From an uncultured Oscillospiraceae bacterium (lineage in GTDB: Bacteria; Bacillota; Clostridia; Oscillospirales; Oscillospiraceae), in the NCBI GenBank assembly GCA_947627085.1, contig CANQUO010000001.1, positions 1-53,295 on the forward strand: DNA of 53,295 nt. Reading direction: 5' to 3'. The notes under the pieces are model-generated. The model was not told the DNA's origin and did not search any database. It was given only the letters and a program-made list of their open reading frames with translations. How positions within the stretch are numbered: the stretch's first letter is position 1; each line of letters opens with the position of its first letter. Both the position numbers and the translations under genes were made by a program. Below are positions 1 to 49,536 of the stretch, piece by piece.

Positions 1-2676
1 TCGGCGGGGCAGGAGCAGGCGCTGATGCACGCGCTGAGGGTGAGGCCGAGGGAGCGGTACCAGTCGGTGAAGGAGTTTCACACGGCGCTGTACGAGGGCG
101 TCGTGACGGTGCGCCTTGAGGGCGGCGATGAGGAACAGGAGATTTCTGTCGCCAAGGGCGACGTGCTCAAGGCCGCGGAGCTCCCCGTACCGGTGAAGGA
201 GGGCTATACCTTCACCGGGTGGTATACCGATGAAAGCCGTCAAAGCCGGCTTACGGAGCTGACGGTGAAGGACGAGCTCACGCTTTACGCCGGGTGGAGG
301 CAGAGGAAAAAGCCGGAAAACGACCGGAAAAGGACAAAAAAGCCCTTCTGGAAGAACCGGGTGTTCCAGATAAGTGCGGCGGCGGTGCTTGGCGTGGCGA
401 TACTGGGCGGGATACTGGGCCTTGCCCTTTCGGGCCGCCCCGGCACGCCGGGAGGCGCCTCGGAGCCCCAGGACAGCTCAGGGCCGGAGACCTCCGGGTC
501 CGAGGAGACCTCCGGGCAGGCCAAGCCCAGGGCGAAGAGCGTCTATAGCTTTGAAGAACTCATGAGCTGTATGGCGGACAGCAACGAATATACCGTTTTG
601 GAATGCTACGGCTATGACTTCATCGTGGACGGGCCCATTGAGATAACGAAGCCCGTGCTCATCCGCGGGGAGAACCGCTATGTGGAGATAGGGGATGAGA
701 TTAAGCTGAGCTCAAGCCTTACATTCGAAGGGGAGGTGCATTTTAACAGCGGGCGCGTGACCGTCGCCGGCGAGGGGGCCGACCTTATAATGAAGGGCGG
801 CTGCTCCGGCGAGGGCTTTATCAGGACGCAACAGGGCGGCAAGGTGACGTGCTCCGGCGACAGGCGCTTCTACACCGACATAATGTGGCTTTCGGATTAC
901 TCCGACCTTGTGACCACCGACGGCGCGGTCATGGAAAACGACGTGTCGTATATCGTCTTTGACGAGGATGAGGCATTTAAAAACGCCGTCCGTGTGTCGG
1001 ACAGCCAGATGCTTAGGAGCGCCACGTCAAACAGCTCCGTCGAATCGATAATCATAGACTCCGATATACGTCTTGCGGGCGGGGAGCTGGAGATAAATAA
1101 ACCGCTGATTATCGCCGAGGGCGCCACGGTGACCGGCGACGGGAGCGGCCTCGTGATACAAAACTCCCTTGTGAACAACGGCAAAATAACGGGTCAGGCC
1201 GGACTGCGTGTGGAGGGCGGGACCTTCGTCAACAACGGCGAGTTGACCTCCGACATGTACATCTTGATAAAAGGGAACGCGGGCTTTATTAACAACGGGA
1301 CCTTCGCGCCGAGCTCGGTGGAATTCAACGACGAGAGCTTCACCGTGAATTTCGGTAATATGACCGCGAAGCCCGGCGACGGGAACTGCGTCAATATTTG
1401 GGGCTCCTCCACGATAGTGAATTACGGCGAATTTGAGCAAAGCGGTGTGATAGCCTGGATACACGGCCTCAGCACCTTCGACAACCGCGGCAGGGTGACC
1501 GTCGACGGAAATCTGAACAACAGGGGTCTGTTCAGAAATCACGGCGAGGTGAGCATCTCCGGAATCTTCAATAATCACGCGGGGGCGCTGGACGCAAGGG
1601 GTGGGGATATCTCCACCACCGGCGGGGGGTATATATCCAGCGGGATCGTTTTGACAGAGCCTGACACCGTCGAAAATGTGGACAGACTGAATATTGACGA
1701 GGGCTGCAGGGTAATTTCAGGAAACGGGTGGACCGGGGAAGTCTGGCCGGTGTACACAGCCGACGACCTGCGCTACCACGTGGCGAATGACCCGAAGCAG
1801 TATGGCATCAGTGTGGACGGGACCATAAGCCTGGCCGGCGACCTGACGGTGGACCGGGATATGGCCATACCCGAGGGATCATTTCTGGTGGTGGAGGGTC
1901 AATTGACGGTCAGGGGAGGTACGCTTGAGGTGACCGGCTCTTTAAGCGCCCGATCCGTCCGTGTCGAGGACGGCGGATTTATAAGTTTGGGCGGTAACAG
2001 CGTTGACCCGCCGGCCCTGTCGCTCACCGGAGGCGATCTTGTCATAACAGGCGGCTCCGGCGGCGCGGCGTACAGCGGCGTGAAGCTCAACGGCGGCAAG
2101 CTGATCGTCTCCGGCGGGTCCGGCTTTGTCAACTCAAACGATATGACCGACTGCGGCGGACTTGTGCTGGACGGCAATTCGACGATGTATGACCTTACGA
2201 ATATAAACTTGTGGGATGACGCCGCCGTTACAGTGGGCGACGGCTGTGTCCTCCAGTCCATGAATCTCAACTCAGGCGCCGACTACACCGTAAGCGAGGG
2301 CGGCCGCCTCACGGTCAGCGGATATTTCCGTCTGTCGGGCCAGGGCAGTATCACGAACAGAGGGGAACTGAGCATTACGGCTCTCAGCACGAGCATCGAG
2401 TGCCCGATAGACAACAGGGGACAGATGGATATTGACGCGTGGGACTATACTGAGTGCTATATACGCAGTGAGATCACGAACCGTGGGGAGCTTACAATGG
2501 CCGGCGACATCACCGTTGACGGCGGAGGCTCAATAGTGAACAGGAACGAGATTCGCTACATTTGGGGCGACTTTATTAACCGCGGCAGAGTCGATAACCG
2601 GGGGAATTTCAGAGGCGAGGAGGACTTTAACCTTGCCGACCCCGGCGACTGGTCAGGAAACGGCGTGATACGGTAA
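1..2676 (+). CDS. 5'-truncated membrane Ser/Thr kinase-like protein (end of kinase C-lobe, Flg_new/InlB-B repeat, one TM helix, extracellular beta-helix-like repeat region)
   Basis: The frame is open from nt 1, so the listed ATG at 25 is internal. RPRERYQSVKEFHTAL resembles the end of Hanks-type kinase domains. GYTFTGWYTDES is the Listeria-Bacteroides repeat signature. A hydrophobic segment FQISAAAVLGVAILGGILGLAL follows, then about 700 aa with recurring xN(N/R)G(x)(I/L/F) turns typical of parallel beta-helices. Confidence 0.6.
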   Translation, partial: SAGQEQALMHALRVRPRERYQSVKEFHTALYEGVVTVRLEGGDEEQEISVAKGDVLKAAELPVPVKEGYTFTGWYTDESRQSRLTELTVKDELTLYAGWRQRKKPENDRKRTKKPFWKNRVFQISAAAVLGVAILGGILGLALSGRPGTPGGASEPQDSSGPETSGSEETSGQAKPRAKSVYSFEELMSCMADSNEYTVLECYGYDFIVDGPIEITKPVLIRGENRYVEIGDEIKLSSSLTFEGEVHFNSGRVTVAGEGADLIMKGGCSGEGFIRTQQGGKVTCSGDRRFYTDIMWLSDYSDLVTTDGAVMENDVSYIVFDEDEAFKNAVRVSDSQMLRSATSNSSVESIIIDSDIRLAGGELEINKPLIIAEGATVTGDGSGLVIQNSLVNNGKITGQAGLRVEGGTFVNNGELTSDMYILIKGNAGFINNGTFAPSSVEFNDESFTVNFGNMTAKPGDGNCVNIWGSSTIVNYGEFEQSGVIAWIHGLSTFDNRGRVTVDGNLNNRGLFRNHGEVSISGIFNNHAGALDARGGDISTTGGGYISSGIVLTEPDTVENVDRLNIDEGCRVISGNGWTGEVWPVYTADDLRYHVANDPKQYGISVDGTISLAGDLTVDRDMAIPEGSFLVVEGQLTVRGGTLEVTGSLSARSVRVEDGGFISLGGNSVDPPALSLTGGDLVITGGSGGAAYSGVKLNGGKLIVSGGSGFVNSNDMTDCGGLVLDGNSTMYDLTNINLWDDAAVTVGDGCVLQSMNLNSGADYTVSEGGRLTVSGYFRLSGQGSITNRGELSITALSTSIECPIDNRGQMDIDAWDYTECYIRSEITNRGELTMAGDITVDGGGSIVNRNEIRYIWGDFINRGRVDNRGNFRGEEDFNLADPGDWSGNGVIR

Positions 2677-2720: not shown

Positions 2721-3023
2721 GGCGCATTTACGCAACATTTGAACGGCCTTAGCAAGGACAAGACGGGTGAGATTAACGCAAGACCGAAAACCCGCAGGCT
2801 TTCCCTTCTGGCATTAAAAGCAATGCCTTATAATTTCGTTTCCCGTAAATGATCCGGTGAATTTGCACCGTATCGTCCGCGACCTTATAAAAGACCAGAT
2901 ACTTCTCCACCACAAGCACCCGATAACCGTGGGCGGAGAGGGCCAGATCACGGGCGCGCGGACAGCGTTCAGGCATCGTAGAGAGACTGGCTATTTCCCC
3001 GGTAAGCAGGTCGTAATATTTAA

Positions 3024-3042
3024 TACTAATATCTAATTAAAA
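3024..3042. repeat. Left terminal inverted repeat of the MITE-like element
   Basis: Matches the reverse complement of 3165..3183 at 18 of 19 positions. Confidence 0.8.
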
Positions 3043-3164
3043 TAAGCCATTCGCGGCGGCCTTTTTTGCGTCATGCGGCGTCAGCCGCCTTGGAAATACC
3101 AATGGGTATTCCCTGCGTCGCCTTCCTTGCCTGACACGAAATATCCTCGCCGCTCGGTGTCTCC

Positions 3165-3183
3165 TTTTAAATAGATATTAGTA
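3165..3183. repeat. Right terminal inverted repeat of the MITE-like element
   Basis: Matches the reverse complement of 3024..3042 at 18 of 19 positions. Confidence 0.8.
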
Positions 3184-3266
3184 TAAGCGCGGCTTGCGGG
3201 GAGAGGGTGTTCAGGTAATCGATCACGCTGAGAAGGTCCTGTTTGGCGGCGGGATATATGATAACT

Positions 3267-3542
3267 TTATATTCCCGTTCCATGGACACGCTCCCGAAGC
3301 TGACGGGCCACCGTCTGAAAATCTTCGCCCTTGGCGCCGTCCGCTATCTCCTGCTCCGCAATGGCGAGCTTGCCGTAAAGCTCAAGGAGCGCGGCTTGAC
3401 GCTCGTATTCCTCGGTACTGAGTACCACAATATCCCCGGAACCGTTACGGGTGATGAACACCGGCTCGCGGGTCCGATGGCAGAAGTCGGAAATTTCATT
3501 GGCGTTGTTCTGCAAATCGGATATGGGACGGATCATAGACAT
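3267..3542 (-). CDS. Phd/YefM-family type II antitoxin
   Basis: MSMIRPISDLQNNANEISDFCHRTREPVFITRNGSGDIVVLSTEEYE is the classic Phd/YefM N-terminal fold signature. The ATG at 3542 lies 6 nt after AAGGAGGTG, and the listed GTG at 3551 lies inside that RBS. The gene sits immediately upstream of the toxin gene and overlaps it. Confidence 0.8.
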   Translation of the reverse strand: MSMIRPISDLQNNANEISDFCHRTREPVFITRNGSGDIVVLSTEEYERQAALLELYGKLAIAEQEIADGAKGEDFQTVARQLRERVHGTGI

Positions 3543-3565
3543 GACTGCCACCTCCTTGTGGAGAT

Positions 3566-3701: not shown

Positions 3702-6700
3702 TCACGGATTATTGGGCCAGTAGCCGTAGTGGACGAACTGTTGGCCTCCTTTTGTACCCTTTGTATTATCAGGGTAACCCTTTACCACGGCGGGGAAGGG
3801 ATAGCTATCCGGGCTCGGAGCTGTCGTGGTGCTGGAGTCGGGTTCGGCCCAGAAGCTGATAACAGTGTCTCCTGATTGGCTAAAGCCAGTACCAGCACCC
3901 ATGCAGGTTTTGAGTTGATCCAAGGTCGCTGCGGTGACGCCACTACTGCCCCAATCCCTCGCTCTTCCGGATAGGCCGTCGCTCCAGTAGTGGCAGTTTT
4001 GGTAGTTACCATCTCGATAACCAACTGGGCCAATACCGTATTTGACACTACTAGTGATCTTCATATAGGAGTATACGTTCTTATAGATTACAGCTCCATA
4101 AGTACCATGTGCTAACCCCACGATTCCGCCGAAGTAGCCGTTGCCGCTGATCTCGCTGCCGGCGTAACTATTCGTGATGTTGACGCTGCCGGCATTCACA
4201 CAGCCAACAACCCCGCCGGCACAATGTGCATTATCCCCTGTATACTCCAGCTTATTGACTGCTTCACTGTTATTGATGTACAAATAATAGTTTCTACCTC
4301 CTGCTCTGTTAACTTCGCCGACCAGACCGCCGAGATACTGCGATGAATTGGACATTGAGTATCCTGCGACAACGCAGTTCGCGATATTGATGTCGCCATA
4401 ACCGGTAACGGAACCGGCCAGGCCGCCAGCGGCCGCACCACTACCGGTAACCGTCGCGGTTCCGCTGGGGGAGTAGAGGATGATGTTCTCAAGTTTGGTG
4501 TCATACCCTCTGACAGAGGTGAACAGGCCGCTCGTCATGTTGAGTTCCAGGATGCGGTAGCTCTGGCCGTCATACGTTCCGATGGGTTCCGAACTCCACT
4601 CTCTGCCGAAATCGCTTGCGCCGGTGTAGATATAGCTGCTCCCCGCATACACATCATGAGTCTGCTGGTAGCTGTGGTTATCTTTGTCCGGAATATTATC
4701 CAGCTGGCGCACGTTGCGGATTTGGTAGGGGGTGCCAGAAGAGCCCAAGCTGTTGTCCAGCGAAATAGCCGCCGCAAAACCAAGGTTGAGATAGTAGGTG
4801 TATTTACCGCCGGCGGGATTGTCTATCTCGCTTGTGACGGTCGTGGAGGCATCCGCCGTCGCGCCGGTGTAGACTTTGACAGTTGCGTCATCATAGGAAT
4901 ACCCTGCTAGAGCATCATTAAGGGCGGCGGCTAAGCCAGTGGGGGCGGTGGCGCTTATATCCGTAACGCCGGTGCCGCTGAGGGTATCTGTCAACCCAAT
5001 GGTGCCGTAGCCCCAGTCGGTGTTGCTGGTGGCGTAGGTGCCCATCGCCTCTTCCACCGAGTGGTGCGTCTTGCAGAGGGTGCTGATGGGCGAAAGCGGT
5101 GTCGCGGTTGTGCCGCCGGTTTCAAGGCCCAGAACGTAGACCTCGTAGCCACTGCCCTCCTTTGCCCAATAGAAGCAGGCCTCGATCTTCGCCACCGGCC
5201 AGTCTCCGTAGTGGGCGGTCTGACCGGAAACGTAGGGGTACTGTTTGGGCTTCGTCAAATCCGGCTGGCCGGTGGTAGCATCCTTATCATACAGAGCCTC
5301 GTCGTAGGGATAGGTCTTGAAGCCGGAAGTGGTGTTGTCGGTGGGGGTGGTGAGGTAAGTTTCCTCGCGCAGGTCGCCTTTAATGGCCGCACCCAGGGCG
5401 TAGGCGGTGTTGGTGGTCCCGACAGTGACGCTTGCCGTCGGATCGCCTGTTGTATTATCCGTCCGTACACCGCCAACCAGCAATCCGGCAAGGTCTGAGC
5501 CACTGGCATCAGCGCTTACCGAGCAGGTGGAGTAGTTGACGCCGCTGAGCGTGGCGATGCCATTATCATCACCCTCGACATAACCAATCAGTCCGCCGAC
5601 CTGCTTGTTGCCGGACACGTTGGCATCGCTTGTGTCATAGGTGCCGCTCTTTGTGTGGCCGCCGGAGTAGCAGTCGGTGAGAGTGGTGGTCACGCCAGCG
5701 TCCACGGCAAGCTTCCCAATCAGCCCGCCAACTTCATCGTAGCCTTTCACCTTCACGGCGGCGAAGCATTTCTCAAGCTTAGTGCCTGATTTAACGCTAC
5801 CAATCAGACCGCCGGTGCTTGCTTTATCGGAGTTCCTAACGACCTTAAACGTTTCGTAGGCGTCCGCAACGCCGGTGGGCTTGTTGCCGGTTGTATTGTC
5901 CACATAGACGCCGCAGTCGGTGACGGAATCCCCCTGAAAACGTCCGGCCAGAGCGCCCGTGTGGTTTTCGTTACCAGAAGTGCTCACAATGCTCACATTC
6001 ACCAGACGGATATTGCTCAGGGTGCCTCGCGTGTTCCCGAACAGGCCGGTCCCACTCTCGTTGGTACCCTCACCAATGTAGAGGTTGCGGATGAAGAAAT
6101 GGTTGCCATCATAGCTACCGCCATTTTTGCTCAGCGAGGCCGGGGTCTGGCGTGGGCCGGTACTACTCTTGCCCTTCAAATCCGCGTCCGCGTACTTGTC
6201 GTAGTCGATATTCAGCAACTGCACATAAGCACGCTTTTGGGCGGCTTTCTGGGCTTCTGTGCCCTTGTTAAACTCGTCCCCCGTGGCCGCCGCAAGATTC
6301 GCCAGTTGCCGCGCGGTACGGATCACGACTTTACCGTCGAAGTTGCCGGTCAACGTACTACCGGTACCCGCCGCGCCGTCCTTGGCTTGGGGCGTTGCGG
6401 GCTTGGGAGTCGTCGTTTCCTGTACGATCTCGCACGCGAAGAACGGGTTGAACCAGTATTTCGCGCCGCCAAGGTCAATTTCGTAGTAATAAGACGTTTC
6501 GTCTGAACCGTCGCTGTTGACATCCGCGATGTAGTCATCAAGGCCGGTGATTTTGTGAAGCTCGTATGTGGTGCCGTCATGCTCGACTGTGACGGCGTTG
6601 TTGGACGCGTCTTTGATTTGTTCAACATCATAAGACTTCCCGTCCACCGTGACGCTGGCCGGGGCCGAATCACCGTCCTTTACCAGCACGCAGTACCCAT

Positions 6701-8978
6701 CATCCGTGGCGTAGGGGCCGCTGGGGCCGGTGGTGCCAACGGCGAGGGTGTTTACAGGGGTAGTCGTCCCGCCTGCCGGGTCGACAATATAGCCCCACAC
6801 GCCGTAGGTGCCGTTGACGACATCGTAGTAGCAGAAGGAACTGGCGGAGGCCTCTTTGAGCCAGTCGCCGTAGTGCATGGTGAGGTGCGTGGCGTAGGGG
6901 TAGACGGTGGTTTTCAGCGTTTCGTCGTAGGGGACGGTTATGAAGTCGGACACCGTGTTTGTGCCGCGATCGGTGCCGAGGTAGGTGTTTTCGTCGTGAA
7001 GGCCGGTTGTGATTTTGGTTGGCGTACCGCTACTCACGTCAAACGCTTCGCCCGTGGCATAGATTTTGCCGTCAGGCGTTGTAGAATCGCGCTGGACGTT
7101 TACAGAACTACTAACAGTCCCAATCAGTTGTCCGCAGGTGCTTTGATTAGCCGCTACCGTTATTCCCACGGAGCAAGTGCTGTAATTGTTGCCGGAGAAG
7201 GTGAGTGTATAGCCTGAACCGGTGCTGTCGTCCACACCCCCAATCAGTCCGCCCACGTTCTGGTCTCCGGCCACATTTGCGCTGACATACTTCCCGTCCA
7301 CGGTGTGGCCGCCGGAGTAGCAGTTTGTGAAGGCGGAATTGGAATTTACCTGTCCGACAAGTCCGCCGACGTCGGTAGCGCCGGTCACCTTCACGGAGGC
7401 GAAGCTTTGGGACAAAGCCGCCGCTGAGGTTATATTGCCGACAAGACCGCCGACATGCTCCGCTCCCTCGACTGTAAGCTCATCGTAGGGGTGTTCAACG
7501 GCGGCAACGGTGGCCGGTTTGCTGACTTCGTCCACATAAGCGCCGCAGTTGGTGATAACAGTGCCGTTGTACTGCCCGGCCAGCGCGCCCACGTTGTTGC
7601 CGCCGGTGACGTCGGCGTTCACAAGGCGGATTTTTTTAAGCTCAGCGGCGGTGGTACCGAACAGGCCGACATTTTCGCCGGTTTCGTCGATAAGCAATTC
7701 GCTGATGGCGAGCCCCGCGCCGTTGTAGGAGGTGAGTTTGTCATTTTTGATCGGCGTGAAATTGCGTATGGGTTTGGCCGCCGTTCCGTATGTTTTCGCC
7801 CATGAGTAGACATCACTCACGCCGGTGGCGTCAAAATCGATGTTCCGGGTCTGGACGGCGCTTGTGATTGTGTCGGTCACGCCGGAGGTGTCTTTGTTCA
7901 GATTTTGCAGATGCCGCCCGTAGGCGATATGGGCGGTGTATTTGCCTGTTCCTAAGCCTGCGGGGTCAGTAATCTCCTCCACGTCGGCGAAGAGGCTGTT
8001 GACGTCTCGCCAGTACACGCGTTGGGAAATGTACTTGTTGCCGCCAGCGTCGTAGGCGGTGACCTTTACCGTGATGTCAAAATTCGCGCCGGGGGTGATG
8101 GTGTAGATGCCTGACCCCGACACTGTCTCGACCCAGTTTTTGAAGCTCTTGCCTACGCTCCATGCCGCTTTCGAAGGCGTGTTTGGATAGTCTGTTTTGA
8201 GGGTGTCCAAGGCGATTGTGCCGGTGTAAACATCTGAACCTTCTACTAAATCGACATCATCGTTGCCCACAATTTTCGAGAAGATGGACACTTCTTCCCC
8301 ACCACCGGAGGCGGTAATCGTCACATTTGCCTTGACGGTATCGATCGGACCGGTAGCATCACGCGGCACGGTGATGGTCAGCAACAGTTCCTCGGCGTTT
8401 GTCACCTGGAGGGACGGGATGGGGGTCTGGTTGAGCTTCAGACGCTCGACATTGGAGTCGAAGCCGGGGCCGCCGTAGTAGCCCACCATGTTGCCGTTTT
8501 TTAACCGATCGCTCTTGTCCGGATTGACGGTGGTATAGGCTTTCGAATATTCAAAGTCGCCGTCATCTTCCCAGTACCAAACCGCGTAGACTACGCCGGA
8601 ATCCGGGAAAATCTCCACCACGTAATGGCCGTCGTGGAGCTGGGATTCGATGGAGCCACCGAGTACGATGGTGTCGAGGTTAGCATCTTCGGTCACGGGG
8701 GTAAGCTCGACGTAGCCCACACCGGGCACACTCACCGTTTTTGAAGTACCGAGGGCCGTGAGGTCCTCACCGGCGGCTGTCATGGCCGTAAGTCTGCTCT
8801 GGGCGGCCATGAAGATGGTCTTGGCGCTGTCGTCCAGCTCCGTGAGCTTCAGGGAGCGGTAGTAGGCCAGGACGTTGGGAATCGCTACGGCCAGAAGGAT
8901 TCCGATGATCGCAACGACGGTCAGGACCTCGGCCAGCGTGAAGCCACGGCGGTTTCTTCTTTCTGATTTTTTGAACAT
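3702..8978 (-). CDS. Giant (1758 aa) protein with a type IV prepilin N-terminal cleavage/methylation domain and three GLUG-repeat modules
   Basis: The N-terminus MFKKSERRNRRG/FTLAEVLTVVAIIGILLAVAIP gives Gly at -1, Phe at +1, Glu at +5 and a hydrophobic helix. Three paralogous modules span approximately aa 345-706, 885-1260 and 1415-1754. They are rich in VGGL(V/I)G GLUG motifs, and each ends with HYG(D/Y)WP. GAGGTG lies 8 nt before the ATG. Confidence 0.85.
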   Translation of the reverse strand: MFKKSERRNRRGFTLAEVLTVVAIIGILLAVAIPNVLAYYRSLKLTELDDSAKTIFMAAQSRLTAMTAAGEDLTALGTSKTVSVPGVGYVELTPVTEDANLDTIVLGGSIESQLHDGHYVVEIFPDSGVVYAVWYWEDDGDFEYSKAYTTVNPDKSDRLKNGNMVGYYGGPGFDSNVERLKLNQTPIPSLQVTNAEELLLTITVPRDATGPIDTVKANVTITASGGGEEVSIFSKIVGNDDVDLVEGSDVYTGTIALDTLKTDYPNTPSKAAWSVGKSFKNWVETVSGSGIYTITPGANFDITVKVTAYDAGGNKYISQRVYWRDVNSLFADVEEITDPAGLGTGKYTAHIAYGRHLQNLNKDTSGVTDTITSAVQTRNIDFDATGVSDVYSWAKTYGTAAKPIRNFTPIKNDKLTSYNGAGLAISELLIDETGENVGLFGTTAAELKKIRLVNADVTGGNNVGALAGQYNGTVITNCGAYVDEVSKPATVAAVEHPYDELTVEGAEHVGGLVGNITSAAALSQSFASVKVTGATDVGGLVGQVNSNSAFTNCYSGGHTVDGKYVSANVAGDQNVGGLIGGVDDSTGSGYTLTFSGNNYSTCSVGITVAANQSTCGQLIGTVSSSVNVQRDSTTPDGKIYATGEAFDVSSGTPTKITTGLHDENTYLGTDRGTNTVSDFITVPYDETLKTTVYPYATHLTMHYGDWLKEASASSFCYYDVVNGTYGVWGYIVDPAGGTTTPVNTLAVGTTGPSGPYATDDGYCVLVKDGDSAPASVTVDGKSYDVEQIKDASNNAVTVEHDGTTYELHKITGLDDYIADVNSDGSDETSYYYEIDLGGAKYWFNPFFACEIVQETTTPKPATPQAKDGAAGTGSTLTGNFDGKVVIRTARQLANLAAATGDEFNKGTEAQKAAQKRAYVQLLNIDYDKYADADLKGKSSTGPRQTPASLSKNGGSYDGNHFFIRNLYIGEGTNESGTGLFGNTRGTLSNIRLVNVSIVSTSGNENHTGALAGRFQGDSVTDCGVYVDNTTGNKPTGVADAYETFKVVRNSDKASTGGLIGSVKSGTKLEKCFAAVKVKGYDEVGGLIGKLAVDAGVTTTLTDCYSGGHTKSGTYDTSDANVSGNKQVGGLIGYVEGDDNGIATLSGVNYSTCSVSADASGSDLAGLLVGGVRTDNTTGDPTASVTVGTTNTAYALGAAIKGDLREETYLTTPTDNTTSGFKTYPYDEALYDKDATTGQPDLTKPKQYPYVSGQTAHYGDWPVAKIEACFYWAKEGSGYEVYVLGLETGGTTATPLSPISTLCKTHHSVEEAMGTYATSNTDWGYGTIGLTDTLSGTGVTDISATAPTGLAAALNDALAGYSYDDATVKVYTGATADASTTVTSEIDNPAGGKYTYYLNLGFAAAISLDNSLGSSGTPYQIRNVRQLDNIPDKDNHSYQQTHDVYAGSSYIYTGASDFGREWSSEPIGTYDGQSYRILELNMTSGLFTSVRGYDTKLENIILYSPSGTATVTGSGAAAGGLAGSVTGYGDINIANCVVAGYSMSNSSQYLGGLVGEVNRAGGRNYYLYINNSEAVNKLEYTGDNAHCAGGVVGCVNAGSVNITNSYAGSEISGNGYFGGIVGLAHGTYGAVIYKNVYSYMKITSSVKYGIGPVGYRDGNYQNCHYWSDGLSGRARDWGSSGVTAATLDQLKTCMGAGTGFSQSGDTVISFWAEPDSSTTTAPSPDSYPFPAVVKGYPDNTKGTKGGQQFVHYGYWPNNP

Positions 8979-9014
8979 ATGGCGGACACCTCGCTAAGAT
9001 AGGCACCGCCCGGT

Positions 9015-9040
9015 GGCCCAAAAGGTACACCTTTTGAACC
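9015..9040. repeat. hix/gix-like recombination site L (imperfect 12-2-12 palindrome, core AC)
   Basis: Sequence GGCCCAAAAGGT AC ACCTTTTGAACC. Its reverse complement matches 9131..9156 at 21/26 positions overall and 20/22 in the core. Confidence 0.6.
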
Positions 9041-9066
9041 AGTGGCGGAAAGCCTTGATTTGCCTG

Positions 9067-9095
9067 TTGAACTAATAGAAATAGCTACATAATAT
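9067..9095 (+). promoter_or_regulatory. Opposing promoter-like element facing antisense into the recombinase gene
   Basis: On the plus strand, TTGAAC (9067..9072), a 17-nt spacer and TAATAT (9090..9095). There is no TG extension. Confidence 0.35.
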
Positions 9096-9122
9096 TGTAT
9101 CACGGCGCGGAAATAATTTCAA
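9094..9122 (-). promoter_or_regulatory. Promoter facing the pilin-like gene in this assembly (extended -10)
   Basis: On the minus strand, TTGAAA (9117..9122), a 17-nt spacer and TACAAT (9094..9099), preceded by TGa. Confidence 0.5.
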
Positions 9123-9753
9123 TAGGGCGCGGTCCAAAAGGTGTACTTTTTGTTACAGGTTCTTCTCTGACCCACCGCAAAAAGGTGCTGTGAGAGACGC
9201 CCAGCTCCTTGGCCGCCTGCCGGGAGGCGAGGAGGCCGGAGGTGTAGCGCGCCAGCACGCCGGGATATCCCGGCGGCCTGTCGAGCCGGGGACGGCCAAA
9301 TCGGACGCCGCGCTCCCGCGCCGCCGCGATGCCCTCCGCCTGGCGCTGGCGGATGAATTCCCGCTCCGTCTCGGCCACGTAGCTGAGAAGCTGCAACACG
9401 ATATCCGCGATGAGCGTGCCGGTCAGGTCCCGGCCCTCCTGCTGGGTGTCGAGGAGGGGCATGTCCAGCACCACGATGGCGGCCCTTTTTACCTTGGTGA
9501 TGAGCCGCCACTGGTCCAAAATCTCCTCATAGTTTCGCCCGAGCCGGTCGATGCTCTTGACCACGAGAGTGTCGCCGGCCTTCAGCTTTTTCAGGAGCCT
9601 TTTGTAGCCGGGGCGCTGAAAGTCCTTCCCGGACTGCTTGTCCGTGACGATCTGGGTCTCCGGCACGCCGAAATTTCGCATGGCGATGAACTGACGGTCC
9701 TCGTTCTGCTCCCGGGTGGACACGCGGATATAACCGTACATTTTTCCTTCCAT
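9100..9753 (-). CDS. Small serine recombinase (resolvase/invertase family) with C-terminal HTH
   Basis: MYGYIRVSTREQNEDRQ contains the catalytic Ser motif of the resolvase/invertase family. The C-terminal AAKELGVSHSTFLRWV is an HTH. AAGGAGGAG lies 5 nt before the ATG. Confidence 0.85.
   Translation of the reverse strand: MEGKMYGYIRVSTREQNEDRQFIAMRNFGVPETQIVTDKQSGKDFQRPGYKRLLKKLKAGDTLVVKSIDRLGRNYEEILDQWRLITKVKRAAIVVLDMPLLDTQQEGRDLTGTLIADIVLQLLSYVAETEREFIRQRQAEGIAAARERGVRFGRPRLDRPPGYPGVLARYTSGLLASRQAAKELGVSHSTFLRWVREEPVTKSTPFGPRPIEIISAP
9131..9156. repeat. hix/gix-like recombination site R (imperfect 12-2-12 palindrome, core GT), inside the 3' end of the recombinase gene
   Basis: Sequence GGTCCAAAAGGT GT ACTTTTTGTTAC. 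It is inverted relative to site L and has the same central dinucleotide. Confidence 0.6.
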
Positions 9754-9849
9754 TTGATCTCCTCCTTGTTAGATTACTCTTTCAAAAAGGAAACTAATAT
9801 AATTCCCCCGCGGGGACGCAAGACATATTTTTTCAGGAGGAATAAAAAT

Positions 9850-9890
9850 CAACCAGCAGTTTTCCTGCTGGTTGAAGGATTTTTATTTTT
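9850..9890. terminator. Bidirectional terminator (ends the ExbB/ExbD-like operon and would also stop plus-strand antisense transcripts)
   Basis: Stem CAACCAGCAG / CTGCTGGTTG with loop TTTTC. It is flanked by AATAAAAAT on the left and AAGGATTTTTATTTTT on the right. Confidence 0.7.
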
Positions 9891-9903: not shown

Positions 9904-10269
9904 TCAGCCGGGGACCTTGGGGGTGATACTGAGGTCCTCGAACACCTTGAGCACCCACTCGTAGGTGGCCTCGATGGCGTTCTCCTCCGCGATCTCGAAG
10001 GTGTGAGAGTCGTCGTTCAGGGCCTCCACAGCCGCCTTGAAGGCGTCGGGCTCGGTATAGTCCTTCCCGTCCAGGGTGACGGTGGACTCGCGGATCGTGA
10101 CGACGATCACGCCGGTATCCGGGCCGCTTTCGTCCGCGCCCTGACTGCCGGAGGGTGTCGACTCGCCCTCCCCGCCCTTTCCGCCGCCAAGGCCGAAGCC
10201 ACGGAACAGCAGGAAGGCCACAAGGGCTATGACCGCGATGATAATGATGAATTTGATGACTTTTTTCAT
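9904..10269 (-). CDS. Small membrane-anchored protein with an ExbD/TolR-like C-terminal domain
   Basis: An N-terminal TM helix KFIIIIAVIALVAFLLF is followed by a Gly/Ser-rich linker and an approximately 70-aa alpha/beta-like domain. The start overlaps the upstream ExbD-like gene by 4 nt. Confidence 0.45.
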   Translation of the reverse strand: MKKVIKFIIIIAVIALVAFLLFRGFGLGGGKGGEGESTPSGSQGADESGPDTGVIVVTIRESTVTLDGKDYTEPDAFKAAVEALNDDSHTFEIAEENAIEATYEWVLKVFEDLSITPKVPG

Positions 10270-10817
10270 GTGTGTTCCTCCTCATTTTTTTCGGCGATCC
10301 GCAAAAAGACCTCCTTGTGCTCCCGCTGGAGCTCCTCAAGGGTGCGGACCACGGCCTCATATTCGCGCCTGTATATGGCGTCCTTATCGCAGTGGAAGAA
10401 TATGTACACCGGGAACCCGCCGCTGTCATTTATGACGTCCTCCGCCAGGCTCCCGAGCCTCGCCGAGACGTTCTCAAGACGGCTTGTCCCCAACAGTATC
10501 ACCTCCGGCTCGCGTGTATCGCCGTCCACGGCGACGCGGAGCCGGTGGACACCGCCGCTCATGAAGTTGGAGACCGTGACCACCCGGGCGCCCTCCCGGA
10601 TGATCTCGGCGCTTTCAAGCTGTGCCCTCAGCGTCTCCAGCTCCTCCTGAAGGTCCGCTATCTCCTCCCGAAGCCCGTCGGCCTCCTCCTTCGCCGCGTC
10701 GGCGTTGGCCCTCTCGTTCTGTGCCCCGGCCAGCAGGACGATGAAGAGTATGGAGAAGAGCACGTCAAGAAGCGGCGTCAGGTTTATCTCGCCGCCGCCG
10801 TGACGGGCCCGCCTCAT
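10266..10817 (-). CDS. ExbD/TolR-family protein with a coiled-coil extension
   Basis: EINLTPLLDVLFSILFIVLL is the ExbD/TolR TM signature including the conserved Asp. It is followed by a heptad-like EEADGLREEIADLQEELETLRAQLE stretch. Confidence 0.65.
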   Translation of the reverse strand: MRRARHGGGEINLTPLLDVLFSILFIVLLAGAQNERANADAAKEEADGLREEIADLQEELETLRAQLESAEIIREGARVVTVSNFMSGGVHRLRVAVDGDTREPEVILLGTSRLENVSARLGSLAEDVINDSGGFPVYIFFHCDKDAIYRREYEAVVRTLEELQREHKEVFLRIAEKNEEEHT

Positions 10818-11389
10818 TTCGCCTCCTCCGCCGCGGGCAGGTCCTTCAGGGCGTCGTTCTTCACGCCGTAGTCCTTCTCAAAAAGGTCCATGGTGTCCTC
10901 GATGGGCCCCACCACCACGGCGTCGGTGACTATCTCCACCGTCTTGAAGAGCACGGCGCATATTATGCCGTAGACCGTGGAGGACAGGGCAAAGCCGATG
11001 CCCTCATAGGAAAAGCCCTCGGATGACAGGGAGGCGCTGTTCAGCGCGATATAGAGCCCCGCCACGGTCCCCAAAATGCCCAAAAGCGTAAAGAGCTGTA
11101 TGGCGGTGGTGAAGATGTCGTAGGGGATTATCTTCTTCCGGTAGCCGTCGCGAAAGGCGATATACGCCTCCCAGTTCTCCCTTGTGACCACGCTCTTCGT
11201 CTCGGTTATGACCCTTGAGCGGTTTTTATGCCAGGAGATGCGGCTTTCCACCTGGCGTATTTTTCCGAGCTCCCGCTTCGCGGACATGAGCCTTCTCAAG
11301 GCGTAGACCCACAGCATGAGCTCCCCCACGCCGAGGACGATTATGGTCCCGTTCAGAACGCGATAGAGGAGGTTGCATATTACCAGCAT
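10814..11389 (-). CDS. MotA/TolQ/ExbB-family proton-channel protein
   Basis: Three hydrophobic helices are present. LLGILGTVAGL and ALSSTVYGIICAVLFK resemble the MotA/ExbB signature. The start was chosen at the ATG 11389 (MLVICN...) after GGGAGAAAGAGAGAA, although the ORF is open up to 11458. Confidence 0.6.
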   Translation of the reverse strand: MLVICNLLYRVLNGTIIVLGVGELMLWVYALRRLMSAKRELGKIRQVESRISWHKNRSRVITETKSVVTRENWEAYIAFRDGYRKKIIPYDIFTTAIQLFTLLGILGTVAGLYIALNSASLSSEGFSYEGIGFALSSTVYGIICAVLFKTVEIVTDAVVVGPIEDTMDLFEKDYGVKNDALKDLPAAEEAK

Positions 11390-11484
11390 TTCTCTCTTTC
11401 TCCCACTCGATACTGATTTGCATATGCCGAGTATATCACACCCTCGGCCCATAAGCAAGGAAAATCCACATCATGTAAAATCCG

Positions 11485-13615: not shown

Positions 13616-13731
13616 AGCCCTTGAACAAGGGGAGCCAAAAATGTAATTTTTATTTTAAATTTAATTTTTTCCTTCTTTATGCAATAAAATCCCTTTCCCG
13701 CGCATTACTTTATTGACAGGGAGTGAACAAA

Positions 13732-14289
13732 ATGGATGATCTGGTTGAGGAGCCCGAGGCCCGGGCGGCCATGCTCGAGCGGCTGCTTCGGGATATCGGG
13801 ACGGGAGACCGGGACGCGCTGGGGGAGCTTTACACGCTCACCCACGCAGCCGTCTACGCCCTGGCCCTCTCCATACTGGCAAGCGCTCACGACGCCGAGG
13901 AGGCCACCCACGACGCGTTTTTGCGTATCTGGGACTACGCCGGCTCCTATAAGGCCAAGGGCTCGCCCGTGGCCTGGATAATGGCGGTGACACGGAACCT
14001 TTGCCTTATGGAGCTTCGGCGCAAAAAGCGGCAAAAGGACCTCTCCGAGGATGAGTGGAACGCCATTCCCGCCGAGGACCGGGGCCTTAACTCCGAGGAC
14101 CGGGCGCTTTTGCAGTGGGCCCTGGGGTCACTCGATCCCGCCTCCCGACAGATCGTCATCCTCCACGCCGTGGCGGGGATGAAGCACAAGGAGATAGCAA
14201 AGCTCCTGGGCCTTCCCCAGAACACGGTCCTGTCGAAGTACAGCCGCGCCATAGGAAAAATGCGCGCAGGACTTGAGAAAGGAGAGTGA
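13732..14289 (+). CDS. ECF-type sigma-70 family RNA polymerase sigma factor
   Basis: Region 2 is HDAEEATHDAFLRIWDYA, and the region 4 HTH is MKHKEIAKLLGLPQNTVLSKYSRA. The ATG at 13732 follows GGGAG. Confidence 0.85.
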   Translation: MDDLVEEPEARAAMLERLLRDIGTGDRDALGELYTLTHAAVYALALSILASAHDAEEATHDAFLRIWDYAGSYKAKGSPVAWIMAVTRNLCLMELRRKKRQKDLSEDEWNAIPAEDRGLNSEDRALLQWALGSLDPASRQIVILHAVAGMKHKEIAKLLGLPQNTVLSKYSRAIGKMRAGLEKGE

Positions 14290-14295
14290 GCCCAA

Positions 14296-22039: not shown

Positions 22040-22999
22040 ATGAGCGAACCTGTATCGTTGAAAAACCGTACCACACTGAAGGAGCTTCTGGAGAAGGAGC
22101 AGCTTTTCGTGCCATGCGTCTGGGACTGCATGTCCACGAAGGTGGCGGAGCTGGCGGGCTTCAAGGCCGTATTGCTCAGCAGCGCGTGCCTGTCGTACAG
22201 CATGATCGGTATGCCCGACATCGGCCTCATCACCGCCGACGAGCTGGTGGCCGCCACGGAGCGCATCTCCAACACCACCAAGCTCCCGCTCATCATCGAC
22301 GCGGACGAGGGCTACGGAGACAGCCCCCTGAACGTCTACCGCACCTGCCAGCGTCTGGCGAAGGCGGGCGCCATGGCCATAACCATCGACGACACCACCT
22401 CCATTCGGGGATTGGAGAGGGCCTACGCCGGCGGGGCGACGTACTATTCAAACTCTGACTCTGAGGAAAACAAGCTCAATACACGCATCTGCTCCGCCGA
22501 CGAGCTGTGCGCCAAGATCAAGGCCGCCGTGGCGGGAGTTGAGGGCACGGACTGCATCATCATCGCCCGTACCGCCGCCAAGCGCATCTATGGCCTTGAC
22601 GACGCCATCGAGCGTATGGCCAGATGCGCCGAGCTCGGCGCGCACATGACCATGGTGCTGAACATCGGCAGCCTTGAGGAGTGCGTCAGGATAAACGAGC
22701 GCATCCCCGGCTGGAAGATGTTCCCGGACGTCTACTCCGTGAACGGCGAGCCGGTGGTGAAGCTGGAGGACATCGCGGCCCTGGGCTTCAATCTTGTCAC
22801 CTGCCACTTCTTGGAGAAGGGCGCCATGTGGGGCATGATGGACTACGCCATACACACCATGGCCGACAAGAGCACCGCATATTCCGACGCCCACGACATG
22901 GGCGGGACCTTTGAGCACGGGTGGATGGGCGTCCAGCTGGCGCTCTCCGAGTTCCCCAAGTGGTTCGCGCTGGAGGACGAGTTCAACAACGTGAAATGA
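22040..22999 (+). CDS. Isocitrate lyase/PEP mutase superfamily protein, paralogue 1
   Basis: PCVWDCMSTKVAELAGFKAVLLS and PLIIDADEGYGDSPLNV match the superfamily N-terminal barrel motifs. Confidence 0.75.
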   Translation: MSEPVSLKNRTTLKELLEKEQLFVPCVWDCMSTKVAELAGFKAVLLSSACLSYSMIGMPDIGLITADELVAATERISNTTKLPLIIDADEGYGDSPLNVYRTCQRLAKAGAMAITIDDTTSIRGLERAYAGGATYYSNSDSEENKLNTRICSADELCAKIKAAVAGVEGTDCIIIARTAAKRIYGLDDAIERMARCAELGAHMTMVLNIGSLEECVRINERIPGWKMFPDVYSVNGEPVVKLEDIAALGFNLVTCHFLEKGAMWGMMDYAIHTMADKSTAYSDAHDMGGTFEHGWMGVQLALSEFPKWFALEDEFNNVK

Positions 23000-23043
23000 C
23001 CGGACGGAGCCGGTATCAAAAAATGAGGAAGTGAGATATAGAT

Positions 23044-23949
23044 ATGCTTATGAAAAACGAGAACAACCTGCGCCGGTTGCTCTCCGAGGGGTATGTCGTC
23101 GCCCCGTGCGTCTACGACTGTCTCTCAGCGCGCTCGGCCATGCTGTGCGGCTTCAAGGCGCTTATGCTCAGCGGGTGCGCTTTGGCGTGGAGCGCCGTGG
23201 GGGTGCCGGACATCGGCCTTATGACGGTGGACGAGCTCATAGCCGCCGTGGACAGGATCACCGCGTCCTGCCCCCTTCCGCTCATCGTTGACGCGGATGA
23301 GGGCTACGGCGAGAGTCCGCTGAACACCTACCGCATGACCGCGCGGCTCATAAGGGCCGGGGCGGCCGGCATGACCCTTGACGACTCCGCGGGTATCCGG
23401 GGCTACGAGCGGCTTTTGGCTCACAGTCCCCACCCGGTGATGGACGAGGACGTATGGCTTGCCAAGGTCAGGGCCGCCAGGGCCGCCATAGACGCCCAGG
23501 GCTCCGACTTCCTGCTCATCGCGCGGACCATCGTCAAGGTCTCCGGCGGGATCGACGCGGCCATAGACAGGTGCAAAAAGGCCGTCGCGGCCGGAGCCGA
23601 TATGACGCTTGTCATCGGGCTTAACAATATGGCCGACTGCGAGAGGATATCCCGGGAGGTCCCGGGGTGGAAGATGTACCCGGACATCACCACCACGAAC
23701 GGCAAGGCCGACGTGGACGTGAAGGACATAGTGCCGTTGGGCTTCAACCTCATCACCATGCATTACGCCGAGTACGGCGCCATGTGGGGCATGATGTACT
23801 ATGGCCGGGAGAACTTCAAAAACGAGAACACCGTCTTTTCCGACACCCACGCCATGGGCGGCCTGACCATGCCGGAGAGGATGGAACAGCTCGCGATGGA
23901 CTACCGTGAGTGGCTGGCGCTGGAGAGGCGCTGCCTCGGGGAAGAATAG
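23044..23949 (+). CDS. Isocitrate lyase/PEP mutase superfamily protein, paralogue 2
   Basis: PCVYDCLSARSAMLCGFKALMLS and PLIVDADEGYGESPLNT, collinear with paralogue 1. Confidence 0.75.
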   Translation: MLMKNENNLRRLLSEGYVVAPCVYDCLSARSAMLCGFKALMLSGCALAWSAVGVPDIGLMTVDELIAAVDRITASCPLPLIVDADEGYGESPLNTYRMTARLIRAGAAGMTLDDSAGIRGYERLLAHSPHPVMDEDVWLAKVRAARAAIDAQGSDFLLIARTIVKVSGGIDAAIDRCKKAVAAGADMTLVIGLNNMADCERISREVPGWKMYPDITTTNGKADVDVKDIVPLGFNLITMHYAEYGAMWGMMYYGRENFKNENTVFSDTHAMGGLTMPERMEQLAMDYREWLALERRCLGEE

Positions 23950-23958
23950 GAGGGACCC

Positions 23959-49530: not shown

Positions 49531-49536
49531 GTATAC

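Follow-up and report, generated by a model that had tools for sequence, protein, structure and literature searches.

In this work, a giant pilin-like protein encoded together with a small invertible segment that carries a putative promoter was characterized in a rabbit-gut Oscillospiraceae bacterium. We consider it likely that this protein is a phase-variable orphan pilus-tip adhesin, which uses a pilus machine encoded elsewhere in the genome. The protein combines a type IV pilin N-terminus with three beta-solenoid modules, its more distant relatives are located within pilus operons, and the segment upstream of its gene occurs in both orientations in nature. The term window is used below for the whole 53-kb stretch of DNA that was analysed.

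Architecture of the giant pilin

The open reading frame and its parts are located in the window as follows.

3702 to 8978, minus strand: giant pilin-like open reading frame, 1758 amino acids plus stop, ATG start
8880 to 8978, minus strand: class III (prepilin) signal peptide with N-methylation motif, aa 1-33, from Pfam N_methyl, TIGR02532 and pilin N-termini in the PDB
8469 to 8942, minus strand: pilin module with alpha-1 helix (aa 15-68) and small beta-sheet head (aa ~80-136, extending to ~170), predicted by AlphaFold2
7926 to 8414, minus strand: beta-sandwich (Ig/FN3-like) domain, aa 189-351, from the AlphaFold2 model with weak FN3 structural matches
6861 to 7856, minus strand: module 1, GLUG beta-solenoid, aa 375-706, from Pfam Glug, AlphaFold2 and BLASTP to module 2
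6339 to 6848, minus strand: inter-module domain 1, aa 711-880, with no family match
5199 to 6224, minus strand: module 2, GLUG beta-solenoid, aa 919-1260, ending in HYGDWP (nt 5199-5213)
4737 to 5192, minus strand: inter-module domain 2, aa 1263-1414, predicted mixed alpha/beta (AlphaFold2 model 2)
3705 to 4736, minus strand: module 3, divergent GLUG beta-solenoid subtype, aa 1415-1758, ending in HYGYWP (nt 3717-3731)

The N-terminus reads MFKKSERRNRRG followed by FTLAEV, i.e. a short basic leader that ends in Gly and precedes a hydrophobic stretch, with predicted cleavage between G12 and F13 and Glu at position +5. The cut-offs of both Pfam N_methyl (29.9 bits against 21.2) and TIGR02532 (26.5 against 16.3) were passed, and solved pilins matched the same region in a PDB search, for example geopilin with E=1.9e-6. 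In the AlphaFold2 model of the N-terminal part (aa 1-710; pLDDT 80, pTM 0.77), an alpha-1 helix of 54 residues is packed on the beta-sheet head, and the pLDDT in this region is in the range of 80-90. The residues of the pilin module are conserved across the giant pilin family. The N-terminal hydrophobic segment is the only one in the protein, and no further membrane segment, LPxTG or HExxH was present in its sequence. With N_methyl and Glug in one chain, it belongs to the modular pilins as defined by Raynaud et al. (2021; PMC8179133), which carry a pilin module and at least one domain that is not pilus-specific.

By comparing the three modules with each other, modules 1 and 2 were found to be 38% identical (BLASTP, E=8e-49). 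The BLASTP match of module 3 (~aa 1415-1758) to module 1 was weak (E=4e-4), and hhalign joined module 3 to a profile of modules 1 and 2 with 99.8% probability (E=8e-28). Therefore, the protein contains three homologous modules, of which two are close and one is divergent. Pfam Glug (PF07581) passed its cut-off of 20.5 bits in module 1 alone (29.2 bits, three stretches), and it reached 15.6 bits in module 2 and 12.3 bits in module 3, which are sub-threshold but homologous. These matches required a module-by-module scan, as the whole-protein scan gave no Glug. A short-strand solenoid spans aa 417-654 of module 1 in the AlphaFold2 model. In a Foldseek search, the second model matched the GLUG beta-helix of IgA1 proteases (3n6z, E=1e-5; 7uvl, 6xjb and 6xja), and the multi-domain model of aa 1-710 gave nothing significant. 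The modules end in a conserved YPY...HYGDW cap, which is absent from the Pfam Glug description, and the HYGDW ends have low confidence in both AlphaFold2 models.

According to the first-pass annotation of this DNA, the protein has 1758 residues, which makes it over ten times as large as ordinary pilins, begins with a class III signal peptide and contains three paralogous modules. All of this agrees with the results above, with the refinement that modules 1 and 2 are close paralogues and module 3 is a subtype. The N_methyl and Glug families that it expected were both recovered, Glug at a passing score only in module 1. As for the HYG(D/Y)WP caps that it listed, HYG[DY]W does occur at aa 702, 1256 and 1750, but the first copy (aa 702-706, nt 6861-6875) continues as HYGDWL and not as HYGDWP.

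Serine recombinase and putative invertible promoter

Directly upstream of the pilin gene, the following features were identified.

9019 to 9040, unstranded: IRR, crossover site next to the pilin gene, with the palindromic core CAAAAGGT-AC-ACCTTTTG at 9019-9036
9029 to 9142, unstranded: invertible segment, 116 bp from site centre to site centre with 98 nt between the cores, in the predicted ON orientation here
9094 to 9122, minus strand: putative promoter inside the invertible segment, -35 TTGAAA (9122-9117), 17-nt spacer and TG-extended -10 TACAAT (9099-9094)
9131 to 9152, unstranded: IRL, crossover site inside the 3' end of the recombinase gene, with its core at 9135-9152, encoding VTKSTPFG
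9100 to 9753, minus strand: small serine recombinase of the resolvase/invertase type, 217 aa, Pfam Resolvase E=2e-30
9849 to 9875, minus strand: terminator-like hairpin upstream of the recombinase gene

The recombinase gene and the putative invertible promoter fall just outside the coordinates of the first-pass annotation and are absent from it. The recombinase has a Resolvase domain (aa 6-150) with the catalytic motif YGYIRVSTREQ and a weak C-terminal HTH (aa 169-196), as is usual for small serine recombinases. Its PDB matches were Sin/Bin3 (E=6e-28), gamma-delta resolvase, aligned over the full length, and Gin. It is not an Mpi, because it scored 55.3 bits against the Mpi family model NF009949, for which the cut-off is 272. 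The pair of recombinase and pilin genes is kept in unrelated genomic contexts, and the hairpin at 9849-9875 is predicted to insulate this unit from the upstream operon.

The crossover site core occurs twice in the 53 kb, as IRR and IRL, where 0.01 occurrences are expected, and IRR is conserved in the related loci L002, L005 and L020. At their centres the two sites have the dinucleotides AC and GT, which are asymmetric and inverted relative to each other; this, together with the inverted arrangement of the sites, favours inversion over deletion by a serine recombinase. The 98-nt inner segment has equal length in four loci. A length of 116 bp between site centres is short for a serine invertase, and this counts against such a switch. 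The last 10 recombinase codons are located on the segment; the recombinase tails of relatives fall into two classes, and the predicted OFF tail gives a protein of 224 aa. Another inverted match of 17 nt (9032-9048 and 9505-9521) was considered as a crossover pair and rejected, as it is not conserved in L005 or L020.

The promoter scan gave TTGAAA-N17-TGaTACAAT, with 10/12 consensus matches plus the TG extension, and in the window this sequence points toward the pilin ATG at 8978. Its hexamers and spacing are the same in L002, L005 and L020. The segment appears to hold the sole good promoter for the pilin gene, and the window would represent the ON state; both the promoter activity and the ON/OFF assignment are predicted from the consensus alone.

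Both orientations of the segment

The segment was found inverted, in the predicted OFF orientation, in five assemblies of two relatives' loci. Compared with L001-L007, the inner segment is identical at 77/98 and 69/98 positions as the reverse complement, and the forward orientation gives 56/98 identical positions and a score that is close to zero or negative. Between L005 and L020 the flanks are colinear at 95% and 88%, and the 142-nt switch matches on the opposite strand; they are one locus captured in both states in two assemblies.

Furthermore, the rabbit-gut run X3 contains a contig in which the left flank and IRR are followed by GCGCCCTATTGAAA; this sequence is exactly the reverse complement of 9117-9130 and forms the junction predicted for OFF in this strain. 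The ON right junction is also present in this run, as is a further right-junction contig with a single-letter difference, which is what an OFF right junction would show. The X3 evidence consists of short assembled contigs of 36-92 nt and not of raw reads, and the ON left junction is not listed among them. The raw-read run X12 had almost no coverage of the host organism. With inverted palindromic sites, an asymmetric 2-bp centre and both orientations in nature, the segment has the properties of a Hin/Gin-type switch.

A pattern scan of metagenomes for the IRL core returned 8 loci, none with a giant pilin and most of them apparent chance matches, and in two (L008 and L009) a related recombinase fragment adjoins the site. 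The invertase family itself gave 8000 matches in gut metagenomes, the best 120 of which are each at least 61% identical, and many members have a site-encoded KST motif at the C-terminus.

Giant pilin family and pilus-operon context

More than 2100 homologues of the giant pilin were found, most of them with N_methyl and with or without Glug. A search with its N-terminal 360 aa gave 856 cluster representatives at E<=1e-10, and one 90% cluster in the family comprises 7065 sequences. Some relatives are longer than 5000 aa, the longest 5534 aa. Five more distant relatives (P0089, P0017, P0024, P0032 and P0010) sit in pilB-(pilT)-pilC-pilA-pilD-pilMNO operons, where they follow pilMNO beside three small minor pilin-like genes. 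This order is kept in L016, L021 and L028 and is rearranged in L022 and L023. The N-terminal 170 residues, including Glu5, are common to operon-borne and orphan members. The modular-pilin reading is supported by the N_methyl motif, by the model of alpha-1 helix and head and, above all, by the position of relatives in pilus operons.

The first-pass annotation had read the protein as adhesin-like GLUG modules grafted on a pilin stalk and called it an extreme case. The former part is supported, with relatives at the minor-pilin position; the latter has to be given up, since cluster representatives of the family number in the hundreds and some members are three times as large. Its remark that the window contains no pilus assembly gene was confirmed by Pfam scans and by tblastn with PilB/T/C/D/M/N/O from related operons, which gave nothing below E=0.01 in the 53 kb. 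Neither the window nor the regions within 10 kb of orphan relatives yielded pilus machinery, a prepilin peptidase or a partner minor pilin, and this counts against a pilus-tip adhesin. Missing pilus genes nearby are a trait of an orphan sub-clade and not a weakness peculiar to this protein.

Other neighbouring features were also considered. The MotA/ExbB-like upstream genes were rejected as a part of the system, being absent from all related loci. A shufflon-like arrangement, with C-terminal cassettes downstream and the convergent ORF 25-2676 as an inverted cassette, was rejected, since the 5' end of the pilin gene is where the recombinase and the repeats are located, a Phd/RelE pair lies downstream of it, and the ORF has no similarity to the pilin modules. 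No convincing inverted repeats were found upstream of two other relatives, P0008, with a tyrosine integrase as neighbour, and P0005, with a MerR neighbour.

Proposed mechanism

We propose that a prepilin peptidase would cleave the giant pilin after Gly12, and that a type IV pilus machine encoded elsewhere would insert the protein via its alpha-1 helix. The helix and the small pilin head would serve as the carrier, and the beta-sandwich and the three GLUG beta-helix modules most likely bind ligands. The protein would most probably be located at the filament tip, because it is too bulky for the filament shaft, and it would act there as an adhesin. The adjacent serine recombinase would bind 9019-9040 and 9131-9152 and flip the 116-bp segment between the site centres. 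In the ON state the promoter would drive the pilin gene, and in the OFF state it would fire in the opposite direction, into the recombinase gene at its 3' end, and the inversion would also change the last codons of this gene.

Alternative explanations

The protein may instead be processed by a prepilin peptidase and yet not be built into a pilus. In such a case alpha-1 would be a membrane anchor or the stalk of a short pseudopilus, the pilin N-terminus would be a sorting device, and an adhesin of ~1700 residues would reach across the wall. The orphan gene with neither machinery nor partner minor pilins nearby fits with this, members of more than 5000 aa are hard to picture on a dynamic pilus, and the N-terminus is the sole tether in a protein that has no LPxTG or other anchor. 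On the other hand, the more distant relatives are found among the minor-pilin genes of complete pilus operons, accompanied by three small pilin-like genes, and the N-terminal 170 residues are conserved between operon-borne and orphan members. We regard this alternative as rather unlikely. Still less probable, in our view, are GLUG modules with enzymatic activity (protease or glycan lyase), which would make the giant pilin a pilus-borne enzyme. Pilins with peptidase modules have been catalogued (PMC8179133), the Foldseek matches include IgA1 proteases (E from 1e-5 to 3e-4) and, at a weak level, pectate lyases, and Peptidase_M26_N gave a weak match of 16 bits against a cut-off of 27.7. However, the IgA1 protease match is limited to the non-catalytic GLUG beta-helix, the matches to pectate lyases fall short of significance (E>0.1), and with HExxH missing the protein is not an M26 IgA1-specific metalloprotease.

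We attach very little weight to a third explanation, in which the recombinase serves as resolvase or integrase for a mobile element carrying the pilin gene, the repeats are sites similar to res or att, and the differences in orientation are fixed between strains. It would agree with the differing genomic contexts of the recombinase-pilin pair between species, with the resolvases Sin and gamma-delta among the best solved relatives, and with the single orientation in most assemblies. It is opposed by the inverted sites with their asymmetric centres and by the conserved promoter between them at fixed spacing in four loci, and no transposase or second element end was found. Moreover, run X3 contains both kinds of junction for one and the same strain, and at one chromosomal site the flip is the sole difference between L005 and L020. 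A phase-variable pilus-tip adhesin thus remains the preferred explanation.

Comparison with known systems

The closest known pilins are the modular minor pilins PilB (vWA module, 50.5 kDa) and PilC (lectin module) of Streptococcus sanguinis (Raynaud et al., 2021; PMC8179133). Like the giant pilin, they have a class III signal peptide, a small pilin carrier, bulky C-terminal ligand-binding modules and a presumed tip location, and their genes lie among pilus genes, as those of its relatives do. In contrast, the giant pilin is 3-4 times larger than PilB, it carries three GLUG modules with domains between them where PilB and PilC have a single vWA or lectin module, and its gene is detached from the pilus operon and placed under a putative invertible promoter. 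The N_methyl-GLUG architecture (IPR012902-IPR011493) is listed for 6 proteins in Dataset S1 of that survey, in which the most extreme multi-domain pilin has 860 aa (PMC8179133). We found no experimental study of any member of the GLUG pilin family in the literature. The M26 IgA1 protease GLUG domain (S. pneumoniae ZmpA; BACOVA_03286, PDB 3n6z) has the same repeat motif and a predicted right-handed beta-solenoid, although the giant pilin has no metalloprotease domain and its modules are capped by YPY...HYGDW.

The switch resembles Hin/hix of Salmonella, Gin, Cin and Pin in its small serine recombinase with a C-terminal HTH and in the overlap of the recombinase gene with the switch. With Hin/hix it also shares inverted palindromic sites with A-tracts and an asymmetric central dinucleotide, and a promoter on the invertible segment that would drive the adjacent surface-filament gene. 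It differs from Hin in that only the last 10 recombinase codons, and not the whole gene, lie on a segment of 116 bp instead of ~1 kb, and from Gin in that the recombinase is closer to Sin and gamma-delta resolvase in the PDB search. Firmicutes are not known to have Fis, and therefore a different accessory factor, or none, is expected for the pilin switch. Invertons of the Mpi type and others from gut bacteria, such as those at Bacteroides capsule promoters and those that PhaseFinder detects, are likewise short invertible promoters with inverted repeats of ~20 bp and a serine recombinase, and they act on surface structures of gut commensals. Unlike with Mpi, the invertase of the pilin switch is dedicated and adjacent and not global; moreover, the switch belongs to a Firmicute and would act on a pilin gene and not on a polysaccharide locus. 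Site-specific recombination also varies a type IV pilus adhesin or pilin in the R64 shufflon (PilV) and in Moraxella (Piv). However, those systems swap coding segments by the tyrosine recombinase Rci and the DEDD recombinase Piv, respectively, whereas the coding sequence of the giant pilin would stay untouched while a serine recombinase flips its promoter.

Implications

The type IV pili of gut Firmicutes have received little attention so far. The locus, which bears on how simple filaments acquire binding specificity, links a very large and widespread giant pilin family, with a defined place in pilus operons, to a compact and easily assayed switch of 116 bp that has its own invertase. As a serine-invertase inverton from Firmicutes, this switch is small and self-contained. 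The promoter-flip arrangement probably generalises to other surface genes, because the invertase family is very common in gut metagenomes and many of its members have the site-encoded KST motif. As a tentative and rather speculative extension, gut Clostridia may combine a pilus machine and its resident giant tip pilin with orphan giant pilins elsewhere, under private invertons or regulators, so that tip adhesins are swapped stochastically, and the YPY...HYGDW cap may be a family-specific docking or processing motif. If true, it would mean a cassette system in which pilus tip specificity is set by promoter flipping, and not by gene conversion or shufflons. The locus thus provides a testable model of how commensal Clostridia may vary what their pili stick to.

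The giant pilin and its modules

The large open reading frame of the first-pass annotation was confirmed on the minus strand, running from 8978 to 3702 over 1758 codons from an ATG start, with a Shine-Dalgarno-like GAGGTG 8 nt upstream of the ATG. The N-terminus of this giant pilin is MFKKSERRNRRG/FTLAEVLTVVAIIGILLAVAIPN, and the class III signal peptide claimed for it stands: the Pfam N_methyl profile scored 29.9 bits against a cut-off of 21.2, and NCBIfam TIGR02532 was also above its curated cut-off (26.5 vs. 16.3). Searched against solved structures, the protein matched nothing at E<0.01 except type IV pilin N-terminal helices, among them geopilin (E=1.9e-6) and PilA (E=1e-3). No second membrane segment was found in the protein by hydropathy scan, and LPxTG and HExxH motifs are absent from it.

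Three paralogous modules, each ending in HYG(D/Y)WP, had been proposed. HYG[DY]W is indeed present at aa 702, 1256, and 1750, but the first copy continues with Leu and not Pro. The paralogy itself was supported. BLASTP shows module 1 (aa 375-706) and module 2 (aa 919-1260) to be clear paralogues (38% identity over 360 residues, E=8e-49), and module 3 gave only a weak BLASTP match to module 1 (E=4e-4). Module 3 is a divergent subtype of the module 1/2 unit, because two profiles built from segments of relatives, one of the module-3 type and one of the module-1/2 type, aligned across the GLUG core (99.8% probability, E=8e-28). The Pfam Glug profile was above its cut-off in module 1 (29.2 bits) but below it in modules 2 and 3 (15.6 and 12.3 bits).

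Two AlphaFold2 models were built from family alignments, covering residues 1-710 (pLDDT 80, pTM 0.77) and 1200-1758 (pLDDT 77, pTM 0.78). The features predicted in the first were:

aa 15-68, alpha-1 helix of 54 residues
aa 80-136, small beta-sheet
aa 189-351, beta-sandwich
aa 417-654, solenoid of short strands

The second model predicts a mixed alpha/beta inter-module domain followed by a second solenoid, and it matches the GLUG beta-helix of a putative IgA1 protease of Bacteroides ovatus (3n6z, E=1e-5) as well as pneumococcal IgA1 protease (7uvl, 6xjb, and 6xja, E 2e-5 to 3e-4). No significant structural match was obtained for the model of residues 1-710. The YPY...HYGDW module ends have pLDDT <50 in both models, and H702, Y703, G704, D705, and W706 are invariant among 37 aligned relatives.

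Homologue family and gene neighbourhoods

More than 2100 homologues of the giant pilin were found, with a typical length of 1200-2800 aa. Among the first 60 inspected, almost every one carries the prepilin motif Gly-Phe/Tyr-Ser/Thr-Leu/Met-x-Glu close to the N-terminus, and between one and four HYG[DY]W caps are present in most. When residues 1-360 were searched exhaustively, 4020 cluster representatives reached E<=1e-3 and 856 reached E<=1e-10; the matches include proteins of >5000 aa, and a single 90% cluster of the family comprises 7065 sequences. Given this family size and the members above 5000 aa, the giant pilin is an unexceptional representative of its large family rather than the extreme case it had been taken for. 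The sole named genome matching is an uncultured Oscillospiraceae MAG from rabbit, and the runs containing the window sequence are rabbit-gut metagenomes.

Five homologues (P0089, P0017, P0024, P0032, and P0010; 26-33% identical) lie in or adjoin complete pilus gene sets. At the loci L016, L021, and L028 the series pilB-(pilT)-pilC-pilA-pilD-pilM-N-O is followed by the giant gene and then by a trio of small genes, each encoding a protein with a pilin-like N-terminus. At L022, this trio comes before the giant gene and faces a block of divergent orientation, pilB-pilT-pilC-pilA-pilD, and at L023 it is placed between pilMNO and the giant gene. The operon-borne giant genes thus occupy the position of a minor-pilin set, and no other evidence speaks as strongly for the pilin reading.

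The window copy is an orphan: as the first-pass annotation had noted, there is no pilus assembly gene in the 53 kb, and no pilus machinery was found within 10 kb of the orphan giant pilin loci. A serine recombinase gene lies upstream of the window giant pilin, of its closest relatives P0002 and P0012, and of the copy at L020, all of which are orphans. Its place is taken by a divergent MerR-type regulator upstream of P0005 and P0011 and by a tyrosine integrase upstream of P0008, which keeps the three small partners. In this last unit (L024, 4608-13500), the integrase is followed by the giant pilin and by three small minor-pilin partners whose homologues lie in operon L021 (E 1e-17 to 1e-22), with no pilus machinery nearby; it may represent a mobile or separately regulated "tip-complex cassette."

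Recombinase, crossover sites, and predicted promoter

The elements upstream of the giant pilin gene are:

9019-9040 and 9131-9152, pair of 22-nt inverted repeats
9100..9753, minus strand, small serine recombinase of 217 aa (Pfam Resolvase, 2e-30)
9875-9849, terminator-like hairpin separating the recombinase-pilin unit from the upstream genes

The recombinase has the catalytic motif YGYIRVSTREQ, and among solved structures it is closest to Sin/Bin3, gamma-delta resolvase, and Gin. Each 22-nt repeat is itself palindromic (CAAAAGGT-NN-ACCTTTTG), and the core occurs in the window only at these two sites, with 0.01 expected by chance. Read on one strand, the central dinucleotides are AC and GT, so by sequence the sites are inverted with an asymmetric overlap, the geometry that a serine recombinase requires for inversion. 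The recombinase ORF contains the left site, which is translated as VTKSTPFG. Between the sites is a predicted promoter, TTGAAA-17 nt-TACAAT with a TG extension, which was found independently by promoter scan and is directed at the giant pilin ATG, 116 nt away.

A 17-nt inverted match between 9032-9048 and 9505-9521 (94% complementary) is probably incidental and is not conserved in L005 and L020; its second half lies inside the recombinase gene (coding ILDQWR), and the other half flanks the pilin-proximal site.

The recombinase family gave 8000 matches in gut metagenomes, and all but one of the best 120 are >=67% identical. Many relatives (P0121-P0240) end in a KST(P/L)-type tail encodable by the same crossover site. 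A gene encoding a signal peptide follows a fragment of a related recombinase and the site at both L008 (12934-13533) and L009, which makes it probable that recombinases of this type switch other surface genes as well.

Evidence for inversion

The same sites enclose an inner segment of exactly 98 nt at three related loci (L002, L005, and L020). Against L002 and L005, the window inner segment gives a match only when reverse-complemented (77/98 and 69/98 identical); compared in the forward direction it reaches 56/98, and its score is then about zero or negative. In all of L001-L007 the promoter is directed away from the pilin gene, which is the OFF orientation. L005 and L020 are two assemblies of one chromosomal locus, serS-parB-parA-...-glgA-recombinase-pilin; their flanks are colinear at 95% and 88%, whereas the 142-nt switch aligns on the opposite strand. 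This locus is therefore found in both orientations.

The recombinase tails of relatives fall into two classes that correspond to the two switch orientations. The first is 216-217 aa long (for example, ...KSTPFGPRPIEIISAP and ...PNALELLSTL) and the second 222-223 aa (for example, ...KSTPFGTGAKSRNL...T). Inversion of the window in silico yields a recombinase of 224 aa with the tail ...IEIAT, resembling the second class.

In the rabbit-gut sequencing run X3, a contig at a depth of about 6 spans 8963-9040 and continues with GCGCCCTATTGAAA. Since this continuation is the exact reverse complement of 9117-9130, the contig is the predicted OFF left junction of the window strain itself. The same run contains an ON right-junction contig (9117-9164, depth 2.3) and a further right-junction contig with one letter changed, as a hybrid site would give. 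These junctions are assembled contigs and not reads, so the ON/OFF ratio is rough, although the sequence at the junction is specific. Runs X1 and X4 show ON only.

In contigs of a related strain in X1 and X2 (about 89% identical), the switch is joined to opposite-strand recombinase sequence around 9312-9430, with a gap of 52 nt vs. 159 nt expected. This may be an assembly artefact, or else the recombinase gene may have lost an internal stretch, which would lock the switch.

Other genes in the window

Genes neighbouring the recombinase-pilin unit include:

25-2676, plus strand, 883-aa ORF convergent with the giant pilin gene
3267-3551, minus strand, Phd-family antitoxin with its own strong predicted promoter (3594-3566)
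9904-10269, minus strand, 121-aa protein with an N-terminal anchor
10266-10817, minus strand, ExbD-sized protein, no family match
10814-11458, minus strand, MotA/ExbB-family channel protein

The antitoxin belongs to a type II toxin-antitoxin pair (2773-3551, minus strand) directly downstream of the giant pilin gene, and its RelE/StbE-like toxin is apparently split, possibly by a frameshift, between ORFs 3167-3289 and 2773-2976 (minus strand). The three small membrane-protein genes upstream of the recombinase (9904-11458, minus strand) are unusual for a presumed monoderm and are absent from the related pilin loci. The ORF at 25-2676 combines a Listeria-Bacteroides repeat (Flg_new), a transmembrane segment, and a long Gly/Asn-rich repetitive region, and it may be truncated because it starts near the window edge.

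Farther away, at 13723-16299 (plus strand), an ECF-type sigma factor gene is followed by the gene for a 667-aa membrane protein with three near-identical ~70-aa repeats (ADIGADAAK...YEVEF...) resembling PepSY-like domains. Three tandem PEP mutase/isocitrate lyase family paralogues (22040-24879, plus strand) are followed by a periplasmic-binding-protein gene and, further on, branched-chain-type ABC transporter genes. At 42000-53295, G+C falls from about 0.60 to about 0.50; the region contains an HTH-methyltransferase fusion, a second sigma/anti-sigma pair, and a helicase-type (ResIII) 958-aa gene with neighbours, and may be a restriction or defence island gained by horizontal transfer.

Comparison with known systems and proposed mechanism

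Modular pilins are established in S. sanguinis (PMC8179133). The survey in that study lists six proteins with the N_methyl-GLUG architecture (Dataset S1) but leaves it undiscussed, and among its multi-domain examples the largest has 860 aa. Our literature search found no paper joining GLUG with pilins, and for inverton or PhaseFinder together with pilin or type IV pili it yielded only studies of other systems plus a general review. The pilin switch would work in the same way as Hin/hix and the gut-bacterial invertons. Its recombinase falls outside the Mpi family (55 vs. a cut-off of 272 bits), and the switch segment is unusually short. The crossover site within the recombinase's own 3' end is a trait common to a very large gut-metagenome recombinase family. 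The component kinds are therefore known, and the window has a variant of them: a giant GLUG modular pilin, encoded off-operon, under a private serine-invertase inverton.

What the analysis establishes is the protein architecture, its family, the operon setting of its relatives, the two sites, the match of the promoter to consensus, and the occurrence of both orientations. The steps of the mechanism we propose are inferences, given in order of decreasing confidence. Inversion would be catalysed by the adjacent serine recombinase. In the ON orientation the promoter would drive the giant pilin gene; OFF would leave at most read-through from the recombinase gene and would send antisense transcription into the recombinase 3' end. 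A prepilin peptidase would cleave the giant pilin, and a pilus machine encoded elsewhere would insert it. Last, the giant pilin may be located at the tip and bind a ligand via its beta-helix modules. Because the N-terminal 170 residues are conserved, we speculate that orphan copies might compete with a resident operon-encoded giant pilin for the tip.
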